DNA from: a virus
Virus record (IMG/VR): IMGVR_UViG_3300043419_002186
Span: 21,792-85,791 of that record
Direction: 5' to 3' (one strand)
DNA: 64,000 bases
Shown here: positions 8,928 through 26,045 of the stretch, piece after piece
Numbering within the stretch: position 1 is the first letter of the stretch
How the letters are laid out: each line of letters starts with the position of its first letter
Notes under the pieces: generated by a model
What the model saw: only the letters and a program-made list of their open reading frames with translations
Told to the model about the DNA's origin: nothing
Database searches by the model: none
Program-made: the position numbers and the translations under genes

Positions 8928-9271
8928 TGAACCTGCTCCAGCTCATCGTCATTGCCGGAATCGCTGCCGCTGGCGCCGTCAACGTCGTCCGCGCCGTCGT
9001 CCCGACGCTGTGGCTGCTGGTCAAGCCGTTCTCCTGCGACCTCTGCATGTCGTGGTGGTCGTCTCTCGCCGTCACCATCGCTTACGCGACGGTGAGCCCC
9101 GTGACAGTGCTGGAAGCCGCCATCGCAGTCCTCGGCGGGACCGCCCTCTCGCTCATTCTCGTCAAGCTCGTTGGAGTTCTGTCCGAGTCCCGAATCGATT
9201 CGCAGGTTGCCGACTTGGCCGTCTCGGCTGATACTGGCACTGCAGAAGAGGAGTCCTCCCATGTTCGGTAA
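8927..9271 (+). CDS. Multi-TM membrane protein with CxxC (DUF1360-like)
   Basis: KPFSCDLCMSWW between hydrophobic helices. Confidence 0.6.
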   Translation: MNLLQLIVIAGIAAAGAVNVVRAVVPTLWLLVKPFSCDLCMSWWSSLAVTIAYATVSPVTVLEAAIAVLGGTALSLILVKLVGVLSESRIDSQVADLAVSADTGTAEEESSHVR

Positions 9272-20810: not shown

Positions 20811-20893
20811 TGCTGTCTCCTCCGCCCCCGTAGGGGCATCGTGTCGGGCAACGAGCCGCCGCACCCCATGTGCGGCGACTCGCGCCCGTTCTT

Positions 20894-22441
20894 TCACTGC
20901 CCGTCGTCGAAGGCCTCGACCACGTCCCTCGCCCACGCGGGCGTCGGGGAGGACGACTTGCGGACGAGGACGACGACGACCTCGCCAGCACCCTGCGGCT
21001 TCGTCGCGGGCCACCCCGTGTCGCCGTCGGTGAGGACGAACGTCAAGTGAGGCTTCACCTTCGCGACCTGCGCCACGCCAGCGCCCATGTCGGTGCCGCC
21101 GCCGCCGACAAGCTGGTCTCGGATGTGCCCGACGACCTGCGACCCGTCCTTCAGCTTGACCGGCGTCGTCGGCCTCACGTCGCACGCGACCATGTAGGCC
21201 TCTTCGACGCCCCCCGCCTTGAGGATGCCGACGACCTCGCAGATGGAGTCGGTGATGCTCTTCGAGCCCATGGACCCCGACGTGTCGAAGACGAGGCCCA
21301 CGCGCACCTTCGGCTTGAAGAGCGAGGGGAGCACCATGCCGAAGTGCGCTCCCACGCGGCTCGGCTTCGTCATCGTGAAGTCGGTCGCGCCCTTCGCGAT
21401 GCCGATGCCGCGGCGGGTGATACTCGCGAGGCGGGCTCGCCAGTCCACCTTTGGCGGCTTGAGCACCTCTTCGGCCCACTGCTTGAGGCCCGCGGGCATG
21501 TCGCCTCGCCCCTGCTCCGCGTGCTTCTTGACCGCCTCCGCGGTCTGCTTTCGAATCGATTCGACCTCGTCGGGCGTGTAGCCGTTCGGCAGCGACTGCC
21601 CCGACGCCTTCGCGTCGTCGGCCAGCTTGTCGGTGTGCTCGGTGTCACCCGCGCAGCCGCCGCAGGAACGCTGCCCCGCGGGCTTCGGGGGCACGGGGAC
21701 CGGCTTCGAGCCGCCGCCCTGCCCGCTCTGCGGGGACTGCGCGCCGCCCTCGCCCTCGCCGTCGCCCTCGCCATCCTGCGGGTCGCCCTCGCCCTTCTCG
21801 CCCTGCCCGCTCTGCGGCTTGCTCTGCTGCTGCCCCTGCTGCGGCTTGCCCTGTCCACCCTGCTGCGGCTGCTGCGGAGGCGGCGGCTGCTGGGCCAGCT
21901 TCGCGATGACGGCGCGGTAGAGCGCGACGATGGACACCGTCTCCGCATTGCCGTCAATCGGGTCCACGTCAGCGTGCGTGAGCCCGTAGCGCTTGAGCAC
22001 ACTCTCGACGGTGACGAAGCCGCAGGTCTCGAAGTCGGCCTTCGTCTTGACGACGTGACCGAAGGGGCGCAGACGGCCGCCGCTCGCGATGATGACTTCG
22101 CGGAGGACGACGTTGCCGATGGCGTCGCCCAGTTCGTTCCACAGGCGACGGTGCTCGTCGGGGATGCACTGCGTGCGAGCCATGCCGAAGTGGTCGGGCA
22201 TGAGGTGGACGAGAATCTCATGCGCAATGTCCGCGGCCAGTTCCTCGGGCGCGATGGCCAGCGTGCGTGCCTCGTCGTGGAATATCTGCCGCTTCTCGTT
22301 CGCGGAGAAGCTCTTGCCGTAGTTCGGGACGTGGACGTACTGCAGAGCCTGAAGTTCCGGCTCGACGTACGGCATCGACTTGCGGATAAGCTGCCTTGCG
22401 ATGGCGAGTTGGTCGCCCACCGTCTTGCCCTTCATGGCCAT
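20894..22441 (-). CDS. Metallopeptidase-like + VWA domain protein (DUF2201-like)
   Basis: AHEILVH, Q/G-rich linker, CGGC, VDWR, MIDAS DTSGS, GGGGTD, LTDG. Confidence 0.85.
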   Translation of the reverse strand: MAMKGKTVGDQLAIARQLIRKSMPYVEPELQALQYVHVPNYGKSFSANEKRQIFHDEARTLAIAPEELAADIAHEILVHLMPDHFGMARTQCIPDEHRRLWNELGDAIGNVVLREVIIASGGRLRPFGHVVKTKADFETCGFVTVESVLKRYGLTHADVDPIDGNAETVSIVALYRAVIAKLAQQPPPPQQPQQGGQGKPQQGQQQSKPQSGQGEKGEGDPQDGEGDGEGEGGAQSPQSGQGGGSKPVPVPPKPAGQRSCGGCAGDTEHTDKLADDAKASGQSLPNGYTPDEVESIRKQTAEAVKKHAEQGRGDMPAGLKQWAEEVLKPPKVDWRARLASITRRGIGIAKGATDFTMTKPSRVGAHFGMVLPSLFKPKVRVGLVFDTSGSMGSKSITDSICEVVGILKAGGVEEAYMVACDVRPTTPVKLKDGSQVVGHIRDQLVGGGGTDMGAGVAQVAKVKPHLTFVLTDGDTGWPATKPQGAGEVVVVLVRKSSSPTPAWARDVVEAFDDGQ

Positions 22442-22474
22442 GTCGGACCTCCCGCCCCTTGGGGCGCTACCGTT

Positions 22475-22552
22475 GCGTGGGCTTGGGACCACGCTTGCGG
22501 GTTACACCGCGGAGTGAATCGATTCGGATTCACCCCGCGGCCCCTCACCGTT
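22475..22552 (-). ncRNA. Twister-like self-cleaving ribozyme, copy 1 (P5-type permutation)
   Basis: AA-CGGU-GAGGG-[P1 hairpin]-GUAA-CCC-GC...GCGUGG-UCCCAAGC-CCACGC. Confidence 0.75.
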
Positions 22553-22556
22553 CGAC

Positions 22557-23666
22557 CTACGCGACCGTCTGAACCCCGAAGAGCTTCAGGTTCGCCGCCG
22601 CCTCGTTCTTCGTGCTGGCGCGGGGGTTGCCGCTCTTCGAGGAGCGCCACACCTGCAGCGGGCTCGAAGCGCTCGTCGCGAAGTCGCCCTGCCCGACGTT
22701 CGCCGCGGAGAGGATGACGCCCCACGCTGCATCGACGAGGAACTCCCGCTCCTTCGCGTTCGCGGCGAGCCCGTTCACGGCCTCGATGGCGCAGCCCGCG
22801 ATGACGGGGTACACGTAGTCGGGGCGCGACGCGTCGGGCTTCCAGTCCACCGCGCCCGTGAGGACGTCGCGGGGCTTGGGCAGGTTCGCGCTCTTGACGT
22901 ACTCACGGAACGGACGCCCGTGGCCCTTGCCCACCGTGGCAGAGACCAGTTCGAGCCCCGACTCGGGGTCGCCGTCGCGCAGCGCAGCCGCGTAGAGGGC
23001 GCACGCGGCGTCCCACGCACGCGGGGACGGCCACGCGCCGCTGCGCTTGGACTCGTCCGCGGGGAATGCGAGCAGGGCCTTCTCCCCGAAGTGCGAGACG
23101 TAGCCGCCGACAAGCTGCGCGGCTCGCTTGTCGAAGTCGTCGCCGTTGACGCGGTCGGTCATGAGCCACGTGGCCCACTCGGTCGGGCTCGGCACGTCGG
23201 CTTCGAGGTGGACGAGCCGGTTCGCCGCCGCGGGGGGCAGTTCGTTGCCCGCGGTCGTCATCTGCACGGGGTTCGCGGCGAGGACGATGCGCACGTCGGG
23301 GTGCAGGGGCACGTCGCCCACGACGCGTTCGAGGACGACGCGCAGCAGGGCGGACCACGTCGCGGGGCTCGCGAGCGTCGCCTCGTCAATAAACAGGGTG
23401 CCACCCTTCGAGAGCGCGGAGACCATGGTCGGCGCGAGCCGCTTGGTCTCGCCTTCCTGCGGGAAGGGGATGCCGCAGTAGTCGGTGGGGTCGGAGAGGG
23501 CGGGCATCGAGACCCACAGCGGGACACTGTCGGCCTTGGCGCCCCAGTAGCTGCGGTGCAGCGCCTTCATCATGGCGCTCTTGCCGATGCCGGGGGCACC
23601 GACGACGAACGGGACACGGTTCGCCTTCATCGAGAGCAGCGCGAGCTTCATCCAGTGGGTGGCCAT
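22557..23666 (-). CDS. MoxR-like AAA+ ATPase
   Basis: GAPGIGKS, LFIDE, LAAN, NRLVH, SPRAW. Confidence 0.9.
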   Translation of the reverse strand: MATHWMKLALLSMKANRVPFVVGAPGIGKSAMMKALHRSYWGAKADSVPLWVSMPALSDPTDYCGIPFPQEGETKRLAPTMVSALSKGGTLFIDEATLASPATWSALLRVVLERVVGDVPLHPDVRIVLAANPVQMTTAGNELPPAAANRLVHLEADVPSPTEWATWLMTDRVNGDDFDKRAAQLVGGYVSHFGEKALLAFPADESKRSGAWPSPRAWDAACALYAAALRDGDPESGLELVSATVGKGHGRPFREYVKSANLPKPRDVLTGAVDWKPDASRPDYVYPVIAGCAIEAVNGLAANAKEREFLVDAAWGVILSAANVGQGDFATSASSPLQVWRSSKSGNPRASTKNEAAANLKLFGVQTVA

Positions 23667-23722
23667 CGTCTCTACCTTCCCGCCCCGTAGGGCGCGCACC
23701 GTGCGGCATGCACGGTGACCGT

Positions 23723-23794
23723 GACTGGACTTGGGACCAGTCGGTGCGGTTACGCCGCGGGGCGAATCGATTCACCCCGCGGTCCCTCACGCTT
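23723..23794 (-). ncRNA. Twister-like ribozyme, copy 2
   Basis: AA-GCGU-GAGGG-[P1]-GUAA-CCGC-AC...GACUGG-UCCCAAGU-CCAGUC. Confidence 0.75.
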
Positions 23795-23797
23795 CTC

Positions 23798-24283
23798 TCA
23801 CTCCCCCTGCTCGGGGTCGCCAAGCCCCGCCGCGAGCATGAGTTCGCGGACGACGACGGCGTAGCTGTTCTCCGAGTCCATCTGCCCCCACGCGTGCTGC
23901 AGCGACTCGGCCAGCATGCGCCAGTCTCGCCCCGTGAGCGTCACGCTGCGCGTCTGCGGCTGCGCGTCGAGGCGCCGCTGCTGCTCGGCGCGGGCCCTGT
24001 CCGCGGCCACCTCGGCGTGCCGCTTGTAGTGCGCGAGAATGCGGGCGACGAGGCTCTCGGTCTCCTTTATCCCGTGACGCTCTTCCCGATGAAGCAGCGA
24101 GTCGAGGTGGTCGTCGAAGGCGACCGCGTCGCAGAAGAGCAGGGTGACCTTGTCTTCGAGTTCGTCTCGCGCAGCGTCATCGAGCTTCGCCGCGGCTCGG
24201 ACCATGCGGCGGCCGATGAAGAGGGCACGGTTTATGATGCGGTCCTGCGTGTCGTTCGCGAGCGTGTGCTGCTGCGTGTCCAT
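23798..24283 (-). CDS. Hypothetical protein
   Basis: 161 aa, GGAAGG RBS. Confidence 0.65.
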   Translation of the reverse strand: MDTQQHTLANDTQDRIINRALFIGRRMVRAAAKLDDAARDELEDKVTLLFCDAVAFDDHLDSLLHREERHGIKETESLVARILAHYKRHAEVAADRARAEQQRRLDAQPQTRSVTLTGRDWRMLAESLQHAWGQMDSENSYAVVVRELMLAAGLGDPEQGE

Positions 24284-24333
24284 GTGCTGCCTTCCTGCCC
24301 CGAAGGGCCACCCGCCGACGCGGCGGGGACGAC

Positions 24334-24406
24334 GGACGGACTTGGGACCGTCCTGTGCGGTTACACCGCGGCGAACCGAATCGATTCACCACGGCCCCTC
24401 ACGCTT
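24334..24406 (-). ncRNA. Twister-like ribozyme, copy 3
   Basis: AA-GCGU-GAGGG-[P1]-GUAA-CCGC-AC...GGACGG-UCCCAAGU-CCGUCC. Confidence 0.75.
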
Positions 24407-24408
24407 GG

Positions 24409-24582
24409 TTATCGGTGCTGGCTCACGTACTCCGTCCACGCCGTGTCGAACCACTGGCGCTCTTCGGCCTGTCGGCGGGCACGCCGGATGCGGGCGCTGC
24501 GCGCTTCGTCGGCCCTCGCCCGCTTGTCGGCCTCACGGGAGGCGACGGTCTCGTACTGCGCGAACGTCCTGCAGCCCTTCAT
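24409..24582 (-). CDS. 57-aa Arg-rich microprotein (absent from ORF track)
   Basis: GAGAGG RBS plus the conserved leader hairpin, MKGCRTFAQYETV... Confidence 0.55.
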   Translation of the reverse strand: MKGCRTFAQYETVASREADKRARADEARSARIRRARRQAEERQWFDTAWTEYVSQHR

Positions 24583-24615
24583 GGCTTTCCTCTCTGCCCC
24601 TTGGGGCGGTGGTGG

Positions 24616-24846
24616 TTACGGGCCCCCGAAGTCCTCGCCTCGGGGTCCCCATGCGTCGTGACGGGCCGTGAATAGGTGCTGCTCAAAGGCCTCCAACAGG
24701 GCGCGCTGCGCGTCCGACAGGGGCTCGCCGCGCAGTGCCGCGGCGATGCCGTCGTGCAGGTCGCACGCCTCGCGCTCGTTGACGACAAGTTCGACTTCGA
24801 TGCACGGGGCCGTGTCGGTGCACGTGAGCAGGGTCTCGGGCTTCAT
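24616..24846 (-). CDS. Small hypothetical protein
   Basis: MKPETLL..., GAGAGG RBS. Confidence 0.6.
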   Translation of the reverse strand: MKPETLLTCTDTAPCIEVELVVNEREACDLHDGIAAALRGEPLSDAQRALLEAFEQHLFTARHDAWGPRGEDFGGP

Positions 24847-24874
24847 GGCTTGCCTCTCTGCCCCGTAGGGCGTG

Positions 24875-24943
24875 CGCACGGGCTTGGGACCGTGCATGCG
24901 GGTTACACCCCCACCCGTGCTGGCATGGGGGCCCCTCACCTTT
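24875..24943 (-). ncRNA. Twister-like ribozyme, copy 4
   Basis: AA-AGGU-GAGGG-[P1]-GUAA-CCC-GC...GCACGG-UCCCAAGC-CCGUGC. Confidence 0.75.
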
Positions 24944-24947
24944 CGAG

Positions 24948-26045
24948 CTAGGCGGCGGCGCTGTCCGCGGGGGCCGCGGCGAGGCCTTCGAGCGCGGCCT
25001 TGCCGAAGAGCGCCTCGAACGCCGCCTTCGTCGGGAAGGCGCCCGCGGGGGCCGCAAGGTCCTCACCCAGCACCCAGCGCATGGCGAACATGACGCCCTG
25101 CGCAAAGCCCGCGCTCTTCGCGTCCTCGGGCTTGGGGAAGGCCAGCGTCTGCGTGCGCGCCTTCGTGAGCATGGCGCGCAGGTCGGCCTCCGCGGGGCGC
25201 CCCTTCGCCGCCTTGCGGGGCGCAACCGTCGGGGCCTTGCCCGCCTCGGCCTCGGCCTCGGCGCGGATGGTCTTCAGCGCCTCGGTCGAGACCTTGACCT
25301 TCGTCTCGCCGGTCTCGGTCTTCACGACGCGGGCGTCGGCCTTGCGGGAGCCCGTCTTCGAGGACGTCTTCCCCGAAGGCGAGGCCTTCGCCTCTGCGAC
25401 GAGCGCTTCGACCTTGGCCGCGATGACGGGCTGCACTTCGGGGGCGGCGCGGGCCGCGATCTGCGCGGGGGCCATGTCGAGCGTGCCGTCGGTGACGAGG
25501 GCCTTCACCTCGGCCGTGGCCGACTTGTCGATGCCGAAGATGGAGACGACGGTGTCCTGCGGCTTGCCGAAGGCCTCCGCAATGTCGGGCAGCGTCATGC
25601 CAGCGGCGAGCATGCGCTTAGCGTTCGCCGTCTGCGCGGCGAGGTCGTCGTCGATACGGTGCGCGTTCGCCTTGACCTGCAGACGCAGCGCTTCGAGGCC
25701 CGTGGCCTTCGAGACGATGCAGGGGGCGAGGACGAGGCCCGCGGCGAGAGCGGCGCGCATGCGCTGCTTGCCGTTGATCACCTTGTAGCTCTTCGAGCCG
25801 TCGGCGCTCGGCGTCTCGGAGACGAGGAGCGACTGCAGGATGCCGTCGCGGCCGACGGACGTGACGAGGAACGGCGCGACAGGGGCTTCGATGCGCGGGT
25901 CGTAGTCCACCGCGGCGGTGTCGGTCTCGAACCACAGCTTCGAGAGCGGGAGCATGACGACCTCGCCGCTGGCGAGGCTCTCGACGGGGACTGCGGGCGA
26001 CTGCGTGACGGTCTCGGTGCTCTTCGTGCTCTTCTTCGTGGCCAT
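24948..26045 (-). CDS. ParB/Srx N-terminal domain protein with HTH
   Basis: SVGRDGILQSLLV, YKVINGKQRMRAA (GxRR variant), ANAHR, then an HTH-like segment. Confidence 0.8.
   Translation of the reverse strand: MATKKSTKSTETVTQSPAVPVESLASGEVVMLPLSKLWFETDTAAVDYDPRIEAPVAPFLVTSVGRDGILQSLLVSETPSADGSKSYKVINGKQRMRAALAAGLVLAPCIVSKATGLEALRLQVKANAHRIDDDLAAQTANAKRMLAAGMTLPDIAEAFGKPQDTVVSIFGIDKSATAEVKALVTDGTLDMAPAQIAARAAPEVQPVIAAKVEALVAEAKASPSGKTSSKTGSRKADARVVKTETGETKVKVSTEALKTIRAEAEAEAGKAPTVAPRKAAKGRPAEADLRAMLTKARTQTLAFPKPEDAKSAGFAQGVMFAMRWVLGEDLAAPAGAFPTKAAFEALFGKAALEGLAAAPADSAAA

Follow-up and report, generated by a model that had tools for sequence, protein, structure and literature searches.

What are the four structured elements that lie between the genes of a minus-strand block in an uncultivated virus, and what would they do to the transcript that carries them? 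The DNA concerned, the window, is a stretch of 64,000 nucleotides (nt) that runs from base 21792 to base 85791 of a viral contig of 85.8 kb in IMG/VR (IMGVR_UViG_3300043419_002186), which has direct terminal repeats and a completeness estimate of 100%. From 26.0 to 20.9 kb the window has co-oriented minus-strand genes for a ParB-like protein, proteins of 76, 57 and 161 amino acids (aa), an AAA+ ATPase and a VWA-like protein, and the gaps in this block hold the four elements, here called tw4 to tw1 in the direction of transcription, which a sequence-only reading had taken for twister-like ribozymes. By family membership, intact core, covariation and placement they are genuine twisters of type P5. 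The best explanation of the locus, and one that we hold to be probable, is that they cut a polycistronic mRNA into gene-sized mRNAs, a cleavage and a physiological effect that we infer from the sequence.

Structure of the four elements and comparison with Rfam

The limits given below are taken from our alignment A3, the columns of which were checked by hand. The scores are those for the Rfam model Twister-P5 (RF02684) and for R1, a covariance model that we built from six cleanly aligned copies and for which expectation values (E) are rough, as its calibration was shortened.

24876..24943, minus strand: tw4, type-P5 twister in the gap between the ParB-like gene and the 76-aa open reading frame (ORF); predicted cleavage U24905^A24904; RF02684 38.9 bits, R1 82.3 bits
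24334..24406, minus strand: tw3, in the gap between the 57-aa and 161-aa ORFs; predicted cleavage U24363^A24362; RF02684 27.7 bits, R1 76.9 bits; P2 of four positions, T2 AC:GU, P1 tip with the palindrome GAATCGATTC at 24378-24387
23723..23794, minus strand: tw2, in the gap between the 161-aa ORF and the AAA+ gene; predicted cleavage U23752^A23751; RF02684 28.7 bits, R1 78.4 bits; T2 AC:GU, P1 tip with GAATCGATTC at 23764-23773, A.C at the base of P1
22475..22552, minus strand: tw1, in the gap between the AAA+ and VWA-like genes; predicted cleavage U22504^A22503; RF02684 36.2 bits, R1 84.4 bits; P1 of 15 base pairs (bp), GAATCGATTC at 22516-22525

The type-P5 class of twisters was described by Roth et al. 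2014 (as cited in PMC6765202 and PMC5408937). The structural rules for twisters give stems P1, P2 and P4, some ten nucleotides of L1 and L4 that are highly conserved, a pseudoknot T1 of three Watson-Crick pairs between L1 and L4, and a pseudoknot T2 in which two nucleotides of L4 pair with a GC that follows P2, cleavage being 5' of a highly conserved A (PMC5408937). When the minus strand is read and aligned, the elements have the order that had been claimed for them, namely AA, P2', GAGGG, the P1 hairpin, G-UAA, P2, GC or AC, P4, the loop UCCCAAG(C/U) and P4', and both the P5-type permutation and the two pseudoknots are as described, by the Rfam alignments and by hand check. Stems P1, P2 and P4 are present in P5-permuted order in the cmscan alignments as well as in A3, and minimum free energy (MFE) folds recover P1 and P4. 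GAGGG, UAA and the loop GUCCCAAG(C/U)CC are identical in all four copies, and these are also the commonest states in the 103 phage members discussed below. T1, between the GGG of GAGGG and the loop CCC, can pair in every copy, and the positions predicted for the four U^A sites hold when followed base by base.

The four P4 stems that had been listed, GCGUGG/CCACGC, GACUGG/CCAGUC, GGACGG/CCGUCC and GCACGG/CCGUGC, are all found in the minus-strand alignment; copies differ from each other at 3-4 of the 6 pairs and pairing is always kept. The alignment also contains the two versions of P2, GGU/CCC and GCGU/CCGC, that had been reported, with 2 Watson-Crick pairs in tw1 and tw4 and 3 in tw2 and tw3, the RF02684 consensus having four. 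T2 is again as claimed: in copies 1 and 4 a GC faces GC in the loop, and in copies 2 and 3 an AC faces GU, a change between copies from G-C to A-U by compensatory double substitution. All four elements are intergenic and on the coding strand, and they begin 5-7 nt past a stop codon and end 29-56 nt ahead of the next start codon.

Run against the Rfam twister models, as the sequence-only reading had proposed, all four elements match Twister-P5 over the full length of the model (positions 1-58), the limits on the minus strand being 24940-24878 for tw4, 24403-24336 for tw3, 23791-23725 for tw2 and 22549-22477 for tw1. They are the best matches of any Rfam family in the region and the top Twister-P5 matches in a 10-kb scan, with E from 2e-5 to 0.016 (tw3). 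No other Twister-P5 match is present anywhere in the 85.8-kb genome, and E per genome for the four is from 4.6e-8 to 3.3e-5 (again tw3). With regard to the RF02684 gathering score of 37.6 bits, tw4 is above it at 38.9, tw1 is 1.4 bits under it at 36.2, and tw2 (28.7) and tw3 (27.7) are also under it. The lower scores arise mainly from long insertions in P1 and from a P2 that is one pair shorter, and both features are present in high-scoring members of another array, for example one with 54.1 bits and a 3-bp P2. The core word GGTCCCAAG is found 5 times in the window as against 0.52 expected, and no shuffle reached 5.

The likeness to RF02684 covers the whole series of P2', GAGGG, P1, UAA, P2, GC and P4 with the loop GUCCCAAGCC, and includes the same T1, the same T2 and the same predicted U^A site. 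The window copies differ in having U.C, and not A-U, at the core-proximal position of P2, in an unpaired G between P1 and UAA, and in a P1 of 8-15 bp as against about 8 in the model, extended in three copies by a 10-bp DNA palindrome. All of these differences occur in other phage members.

The wider family of phage type-P5 twisters

A scan of IMG/VR for the bare P5 core pattern gave more than 119 stretches. Such a pattern survey includes chance matches, and the statistics that follow are from the covariance-model alignment and not from the survey. Among the pattern matches listed, an R1 search of the loci gave 103 matches, and 27 in a second set. In the 103-sequence alignment 94.9% of cells are paired, as against 66.1% in shuffles and at most 46% with partners slid, and there are double changes in 18 of the 19 pairs; the nested helices were fitted by R1, so these counts lean towards structure. 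The two pseudoknots are absent from the R1 model, and their pairing is thus independent evidence. T1 is 98.7% paired across the 103 members, with a few double changes, and T2 is 89.7% paired, its variable position being G-C in 49 and A-U in 38 of 102 distinct sequences. The switch of T2 from G-C to A-U seen among the window copies is also the covariation that dominates in the phage family as a whole.

The sequence-only reading had called several features non-canonical, these being the C-U at the base of P2, the extra G before UAA and the lack of a P5 or P3 stem. The features are indeed there, but they do not set the window apart from the family, as all are ordinary among the 103 phage members. 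A non-Watson-Crick opposition next to the core (U.C or C.A) is found in 13 of the 103, and in 8 of these it is U.C, including arrays in two other phages (L014 and L073). The G between P1 and UAA is present in 47 of the 103. Both registers of P2 occur: 14 members have four positions of P2 before the T2 dinucleotide, and most have three. The unusual features of the window also recur in other phage arrays, as in L073 and in the member at L014:9200-9270, which has 42.3 Rfam bits.

As for a P5 helix at the open ends, complementarity of the flanks is no better than in shuffles, with z of 0.68, 0.23, -0.39 and 1.38 for the window copies. The median flank-pairing z in the family is 0.18 and only 3% of members are below -2, so that absence of P5 is the norm. 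Long-range pairs in the MFE folds of tw1 and tw4 were considered as a hidden P5 helix, and this was rejected as they too are no better than shuffles. P5 has been described as optional in twisters (PMC5408937), and it is outside the Rfam model, so that a missing P5 is no argument against membership of type P5.

In IMG/VR contigs P5 twisters are often found as arrays on a single strand. In IMGVR_UViG_3300037524_001274 (our G001, with loci L005 and L014) a segment of about 5 kb holds 8-9 Twister-P5 matches, all on one strand and set between ORFs that are small and unrelated. L014 (G001:C1:41530-46483, minus strand) is near one contig end and has 7 matches above the gathering score, the best at 62.9 bits. 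Its member at 9200-9270 has the GGU/CCC and G-UAA sub-type of the window; the array differs from that of the window in that it punctuates small ORFs, with no ParB, AAA+ or VWA gene, and in that its P1 stems are short. Among the matches listed, other same-strand arrays are those of L066 (9-11 copies), L121 (about 10 over 8 kb), and L047 and L129 (6 each). In general a locus in the other contigs has from 3 to about 10 P5 twisters, spaced 240-1700 nt apart, which is the length of a gene. The window sub-type pattern was also sought in bacterial genomes, where the sole match (L228, in a Candidatus Omnitrophota metagenome-assembled genome) is due to chance and is not a twister by R1.

Placement is as regular in the family as it is in the window. 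For 90% of the 103 members the 200 nt downstream contain, in the same orientation, a Shine-Dalgarno-like motif and the start codon of an ORF of 50 aa or more, as against 52% for random same-strand positions and 15% for antisense controls, and the distance from ribozyme end to start codon has a median of 27 nt (quartiles 17 and 32). A long open frame ends within 60 nt before the ribozyme in 71% of the 103, and at 29% of random positions. These figures give testable general rules for phage P5 twisters, which are that they form same-strand arrays, have no P5 helix, and come straight after a stop codon, with the next start codon at a median distance of 27 nt. The regularities of the family (arrays, open P5 and 27-nt placement) may have been published before.

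There is published precedent for the arrangement, and a link between twisters and phage genes has also been published. In prophages, as Perreault et al. described in 2011, clustered hammerhead ribozymes bracket single genes or short blocks; native polycistronic RNAs of about 2 kb are cleaved in vitro, and polycistronic RNA is also cleaved in E. coli (PMC3088659). As in the window, these are same-strand ribozymes around phage genes, for which the role proposed is processing of long transcripts into gene-length mRNAs, and there too the flanked genes vary in identity (PMC3088659). They differ in ribozyme class and in being from prophages of cultured bacteria for which there are cleavage assays, whereas the window is from an uncultivated virus. 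Processing of polycistrons has been proposed for both hammerhead and twister ribozymes (PMC3088659, PMC6765202), and the role of genome-encoded self-cleaving ribozymes in bacteria and phages is regarded as an unsettled matter in the review literature (PMC6765202). The window array is thus a clean new example of a known arrangement and not a new mechanism, and what is known of twister chemistry is unchanged by it. Its value is as a compact case, with ribozymes of one class, an annotated operon, a complete viral genome and pieces of predictable length.

Proposed processing of the transcript and competing explanations

We propose that the four ribozymes would be within a single minus-strand polycistronic mRNA that runs from the ParB-like gene through the VWA-like gene and onward. 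No sigma-70-like promoter sites were found in a scan of the operon from 19.5 to 28.6 kb, and terminator-like hairpins are not enriched in the operon region (4 as against 5.5 expected). Co-oriented, intergenic ribozymes on the coding strand, with no promoter-like sites between them and no excess of terminators, are what is looked for in an array that processes a polycistron, and the proposal is consistent with this.

In each ribozyme the P2 stem would enclose the P1 hairpin and be followed by the P4 hairpin, and the P4 loop would dock by two contacts, its CCC pairing with the GGG of GAGGG in T1 and its G(C/U) pairing in T2 with the GC or AC that follows P2. Cleavage is predicted within UAA, 3' of the U and 5' of the first A. 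As the permutation is open, with no P5 helix, nothing but the 3-4 positions of P2 and the 3 bp of T1 would hold the products together, and ready separation is therefore expected. The upstream product would end in the long GC-rich P1 hairpin followed by G-U with a 2',3'-cyclic phosphate. The downstream product would begin with 5'-OH-AA and the P2 strand, about 10 nt up to P4, and then have the P4 hairpin and one or two further hairpins before the Shine-Dalgarno sequence. The predicted units are one of 542 nt with the 76-aa and 57-aa ORFs, one of 611 nt with the 161-aa ORF, one of 1248 nt with the AAA+ gene, and a piece with the VWA-like gene and those downstream of it. The sequence-only reading had given separate units to the VWA protein, the MoxR ATPase and two small ORFs; those for the VWA protein and the ATPase stand, and the division of the small ORFs is corrected, since the 76-aa and 57-aa ORFs share a bicistronic unit and the 161-aa ORF is alone.

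Structured and non-phosphorylated mRNA ends could give the genes different stability or expression, and the 5' untranslated regions would be insulated from upstream sequence. A related effect is known from RiboJ-type insulators, in which an engineered hammerhead-derived ribozyme upstream of the ribosome-binding site (RBS) removes upstream RNA, leaving a 5'-OH and a hairpin and giving expression that is independent of context. The phage twisters differ from these in that the upstream product, too, would keep a terminal hairpin, at its 3' end.

The module of genes can also be found without ribozymes. Close homologues of the AAA+ protein (42-57% identity) are found in metagenomes only; megablast among deposited phages gave no close DNA relatives of the window, and the AAA+ protein as sole query against viral contigs gave no close relatives. 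Two viral contigs, L214 and L215, have an AAA+ orthologue at 42% identity and the same gene order of ParB-like, small ORF, AAA+ and VWA genes. Neither has an Rfam ribozyme match at E <= 0.5 or an R1 match, and their intergenic gaps hold hairpins and the palindrome GAATCGATTC in place of ribozymes. A search of 31 more distant AAA+ loci likewise gave none with a ribozyme match. We had considered that the ribozymes might be conserved together with the ParB/AAA+/VWA module, and on these data that was rejected. The presence of the same module without ribozymes in L214 and L215 makes the twisters a lineage-specific addition that is not tied to the genes. Such viruses, in which the genes are the same and ribozymes are lacking, are a natural control for the contribution of the ribozymes.

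Several observations weigh against processing of the transcript by active twisters. Three of the four copies are under the Rfam gathering score, and all four have the U.C opposition at the core-proximal position of P2, adjoining the sheared A.G pair; changes in P2 length have been suggested as a possible disturbance of the twister active site (PMC5408937). The absence of ribozymes from L214 and L215 means that they are not essential for expression of the module genes. Folding shows no consistent change in RBS accessibility upon cleavage, and unmasking of the RBS was rejected as a role, the unpaired probability of the Shine-Dalgarno sequence going, from uncleaved RNA to 3' product, from 0.44 to 0.22, 0.55 to 0.39, 0.61 to 0.63 and 0.50 to 0.50 at the four sites. 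Any benefit for mRNA stability is argued from general knowledge of RNases that depend on the 5' end. The scores, the U.C opposition, the A.C at the base of P1 in tw2 and the related viruses without ribozymes at the same junctions would also be expected if the elements are of twister origin but in some or all copies cleave very slowly or no longer at all, and persist as structured spacers, either as stabilising hairpins or as carriers of the palindrome, and many computationally predicted ribozymes do prove non-cleaving in tests (PMC8782182). We think this unlikely, as GAGGG, the A of UAA, the L4 loop, T1 and T2 are intact in all four copies, the differences in P4 and T2 are compensatory and not random, and the long P1 insertions and short P2 that lower the scores are seen in high scorers too. 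In high-throughput assays of twister cleavage imperfections in P1, P2 and P4 are largely tolerated, with the pseudoknots and catalytic residues being sensitive (PMC11662667), and P1 is dispensable for cleavage (PMC5408937). Since the sensitive positions are intact, imperfections of the kind seen in P1 and P2 are tolerated and P1 can be dispensed with, it is likely that most or all of the four copies would self-cleave.

It could also be that the ribozymes are active but do more than separate mRNAs, either through circularisation or re-joining of RtcB type or through conditional cleavage, for example coupled to terminating ribosomes. The three internal units of 542, 611 and 1248 nt would carry ends that are RtcB substrates, and with the ribozymes starting 5-7 nt past the stop codon a terminating ribosome would cover P2' and GAGGG. 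Spliced or circular products were raised as a possibility by Perreault et al. for hammerhead arrays, but they sought such products and found none (PMC3088659); no ligase gene was identified beside the window array in Pfam and PHROG scans, and nothing in the sequence requires either form of this explanation, which we consider improbable. A more specific version is that the P5 permutation was selected for a protective hairpin on both products, giving operon insulation without a protein, with RtcB-circularised single-gene mRNAs, such as that for AAA+, in addition. We would give this little credence, but if true, internal units with 5'-OH and 2',3'-cyclic phosphate ends could be closed by host RtcB into circles, giving mRNAs that resist nucleases. 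The last alternative is a chance resemblance, or elements that act in the DNA such as repeat hairpins, terminators or protein-binding sites. With GAATCGATTC in three of the four elements, part of those three is certainly a DNA-level motif. However tw4, which lacks the palindrome, has the best Rfam score, and the parts that all four share are those of the twister core; chance is also hard to reconcile with the per-genome E values and the covariation of P4 and T2, and terminators with the lack of a U-tract after P1 and of any enrichment of terminator-like sites. We find this alternative scarcely credible, and genuine twisters that process the polycistron remain the explanation that we prefer.

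The gene block, its ribosome-binding-site hairpins and the palindrome

The genes of the block, with their matches in Pfam and PHROG scans, are as follows.

24948..26045, minus strand: ParB-like gene, upstream of tw4; Pfam ParB_N, E = 5.6e-7; PHROG 4715, ParB-like partition protein, E = 1.2e-16
24616..24846, minus strand: 76-aa ORF, first gene of the unit between tw4 and tw3; no match in the Pfam and PHROG scans
24409..24582, minus strand: 57-aa ORF, from the ORF list; its start is preceded by an RBS hairpin alone, with no ribozyme upstream
23798..24283, minus strand: 161-aa ORF, between tw3 and tw2; no known family in the Pfam and PHROG scans
22557..23666, minus strand: AAA+ (AAA_5, MoxR-like) ATPase gene, between tw2 and tw1; Pfam AAA_5, E = 1.4e-5; PHROG 1297, ATPase, E = 1.6e-38
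20894..22441, minus strand: gene for a VWA-like (DUF2201) protein, downstream of tw1; Pfam DUF2201, E = 1.7e-12

Homologues of the AAA+ protein are labelled MoxR-like ATPase in their source databases. A further repeated feature of the block is a hairpin of the form GCCCC-N4-GGGGC.

22447-22467, minus strand: GCCCC-N4-GGGGC hairpin, then a purine-rich Shine-Dalgarno sequence and, close behind, the VWA start codon; also seen in the folds
20817-20837, 23675-23695, 24589-24609 and 24853-24873, minus strand: hairpins of the same type, from alignment and pattern scan

The pattern has 6 matches, with 0.69 expected. The hairpin is directly upstream of the Shine-Dalgarno sequence at five junctions or start codons of the operon, two of which are without a ribozyme. 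After their P4, tw2 and tw3 are each followed by one more GC-rich hairpin, CACCGUGCAUGCCGCACGGUG and CCCCGCCGCGUCGGCGGG respectively, ahead of the RBS hairpin (minus strand, 23725-23803 and 24334-24414), and in the folds of tw1 and tw4 there is no such hairpin after P4.

The 10-bp palindrome GAATCGATTC is found 47 times in the window, from 1346 to 62444, as against 0.10 expected. Its consensus is cGAATCGATTCg, its flanks are not conserved, and it occurs in coding and in intergenic DNA. Three of the copies form the tips of the P1 stems of tw1, tw2 and tw3. L214 and L215 have 12 copies each in 13 kb, with one in each intergenic gap of the module where the window phage has twisters.

The junction of the 76-aa and 57-aa ORFs (24583-24621, minus strand), which is without a ribozyme, has at its stop codon the string CCGUAACC, which is the G-UAA-CC string of the four twisters. 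This could be coincidence or the remnant of a lost ribozyme.

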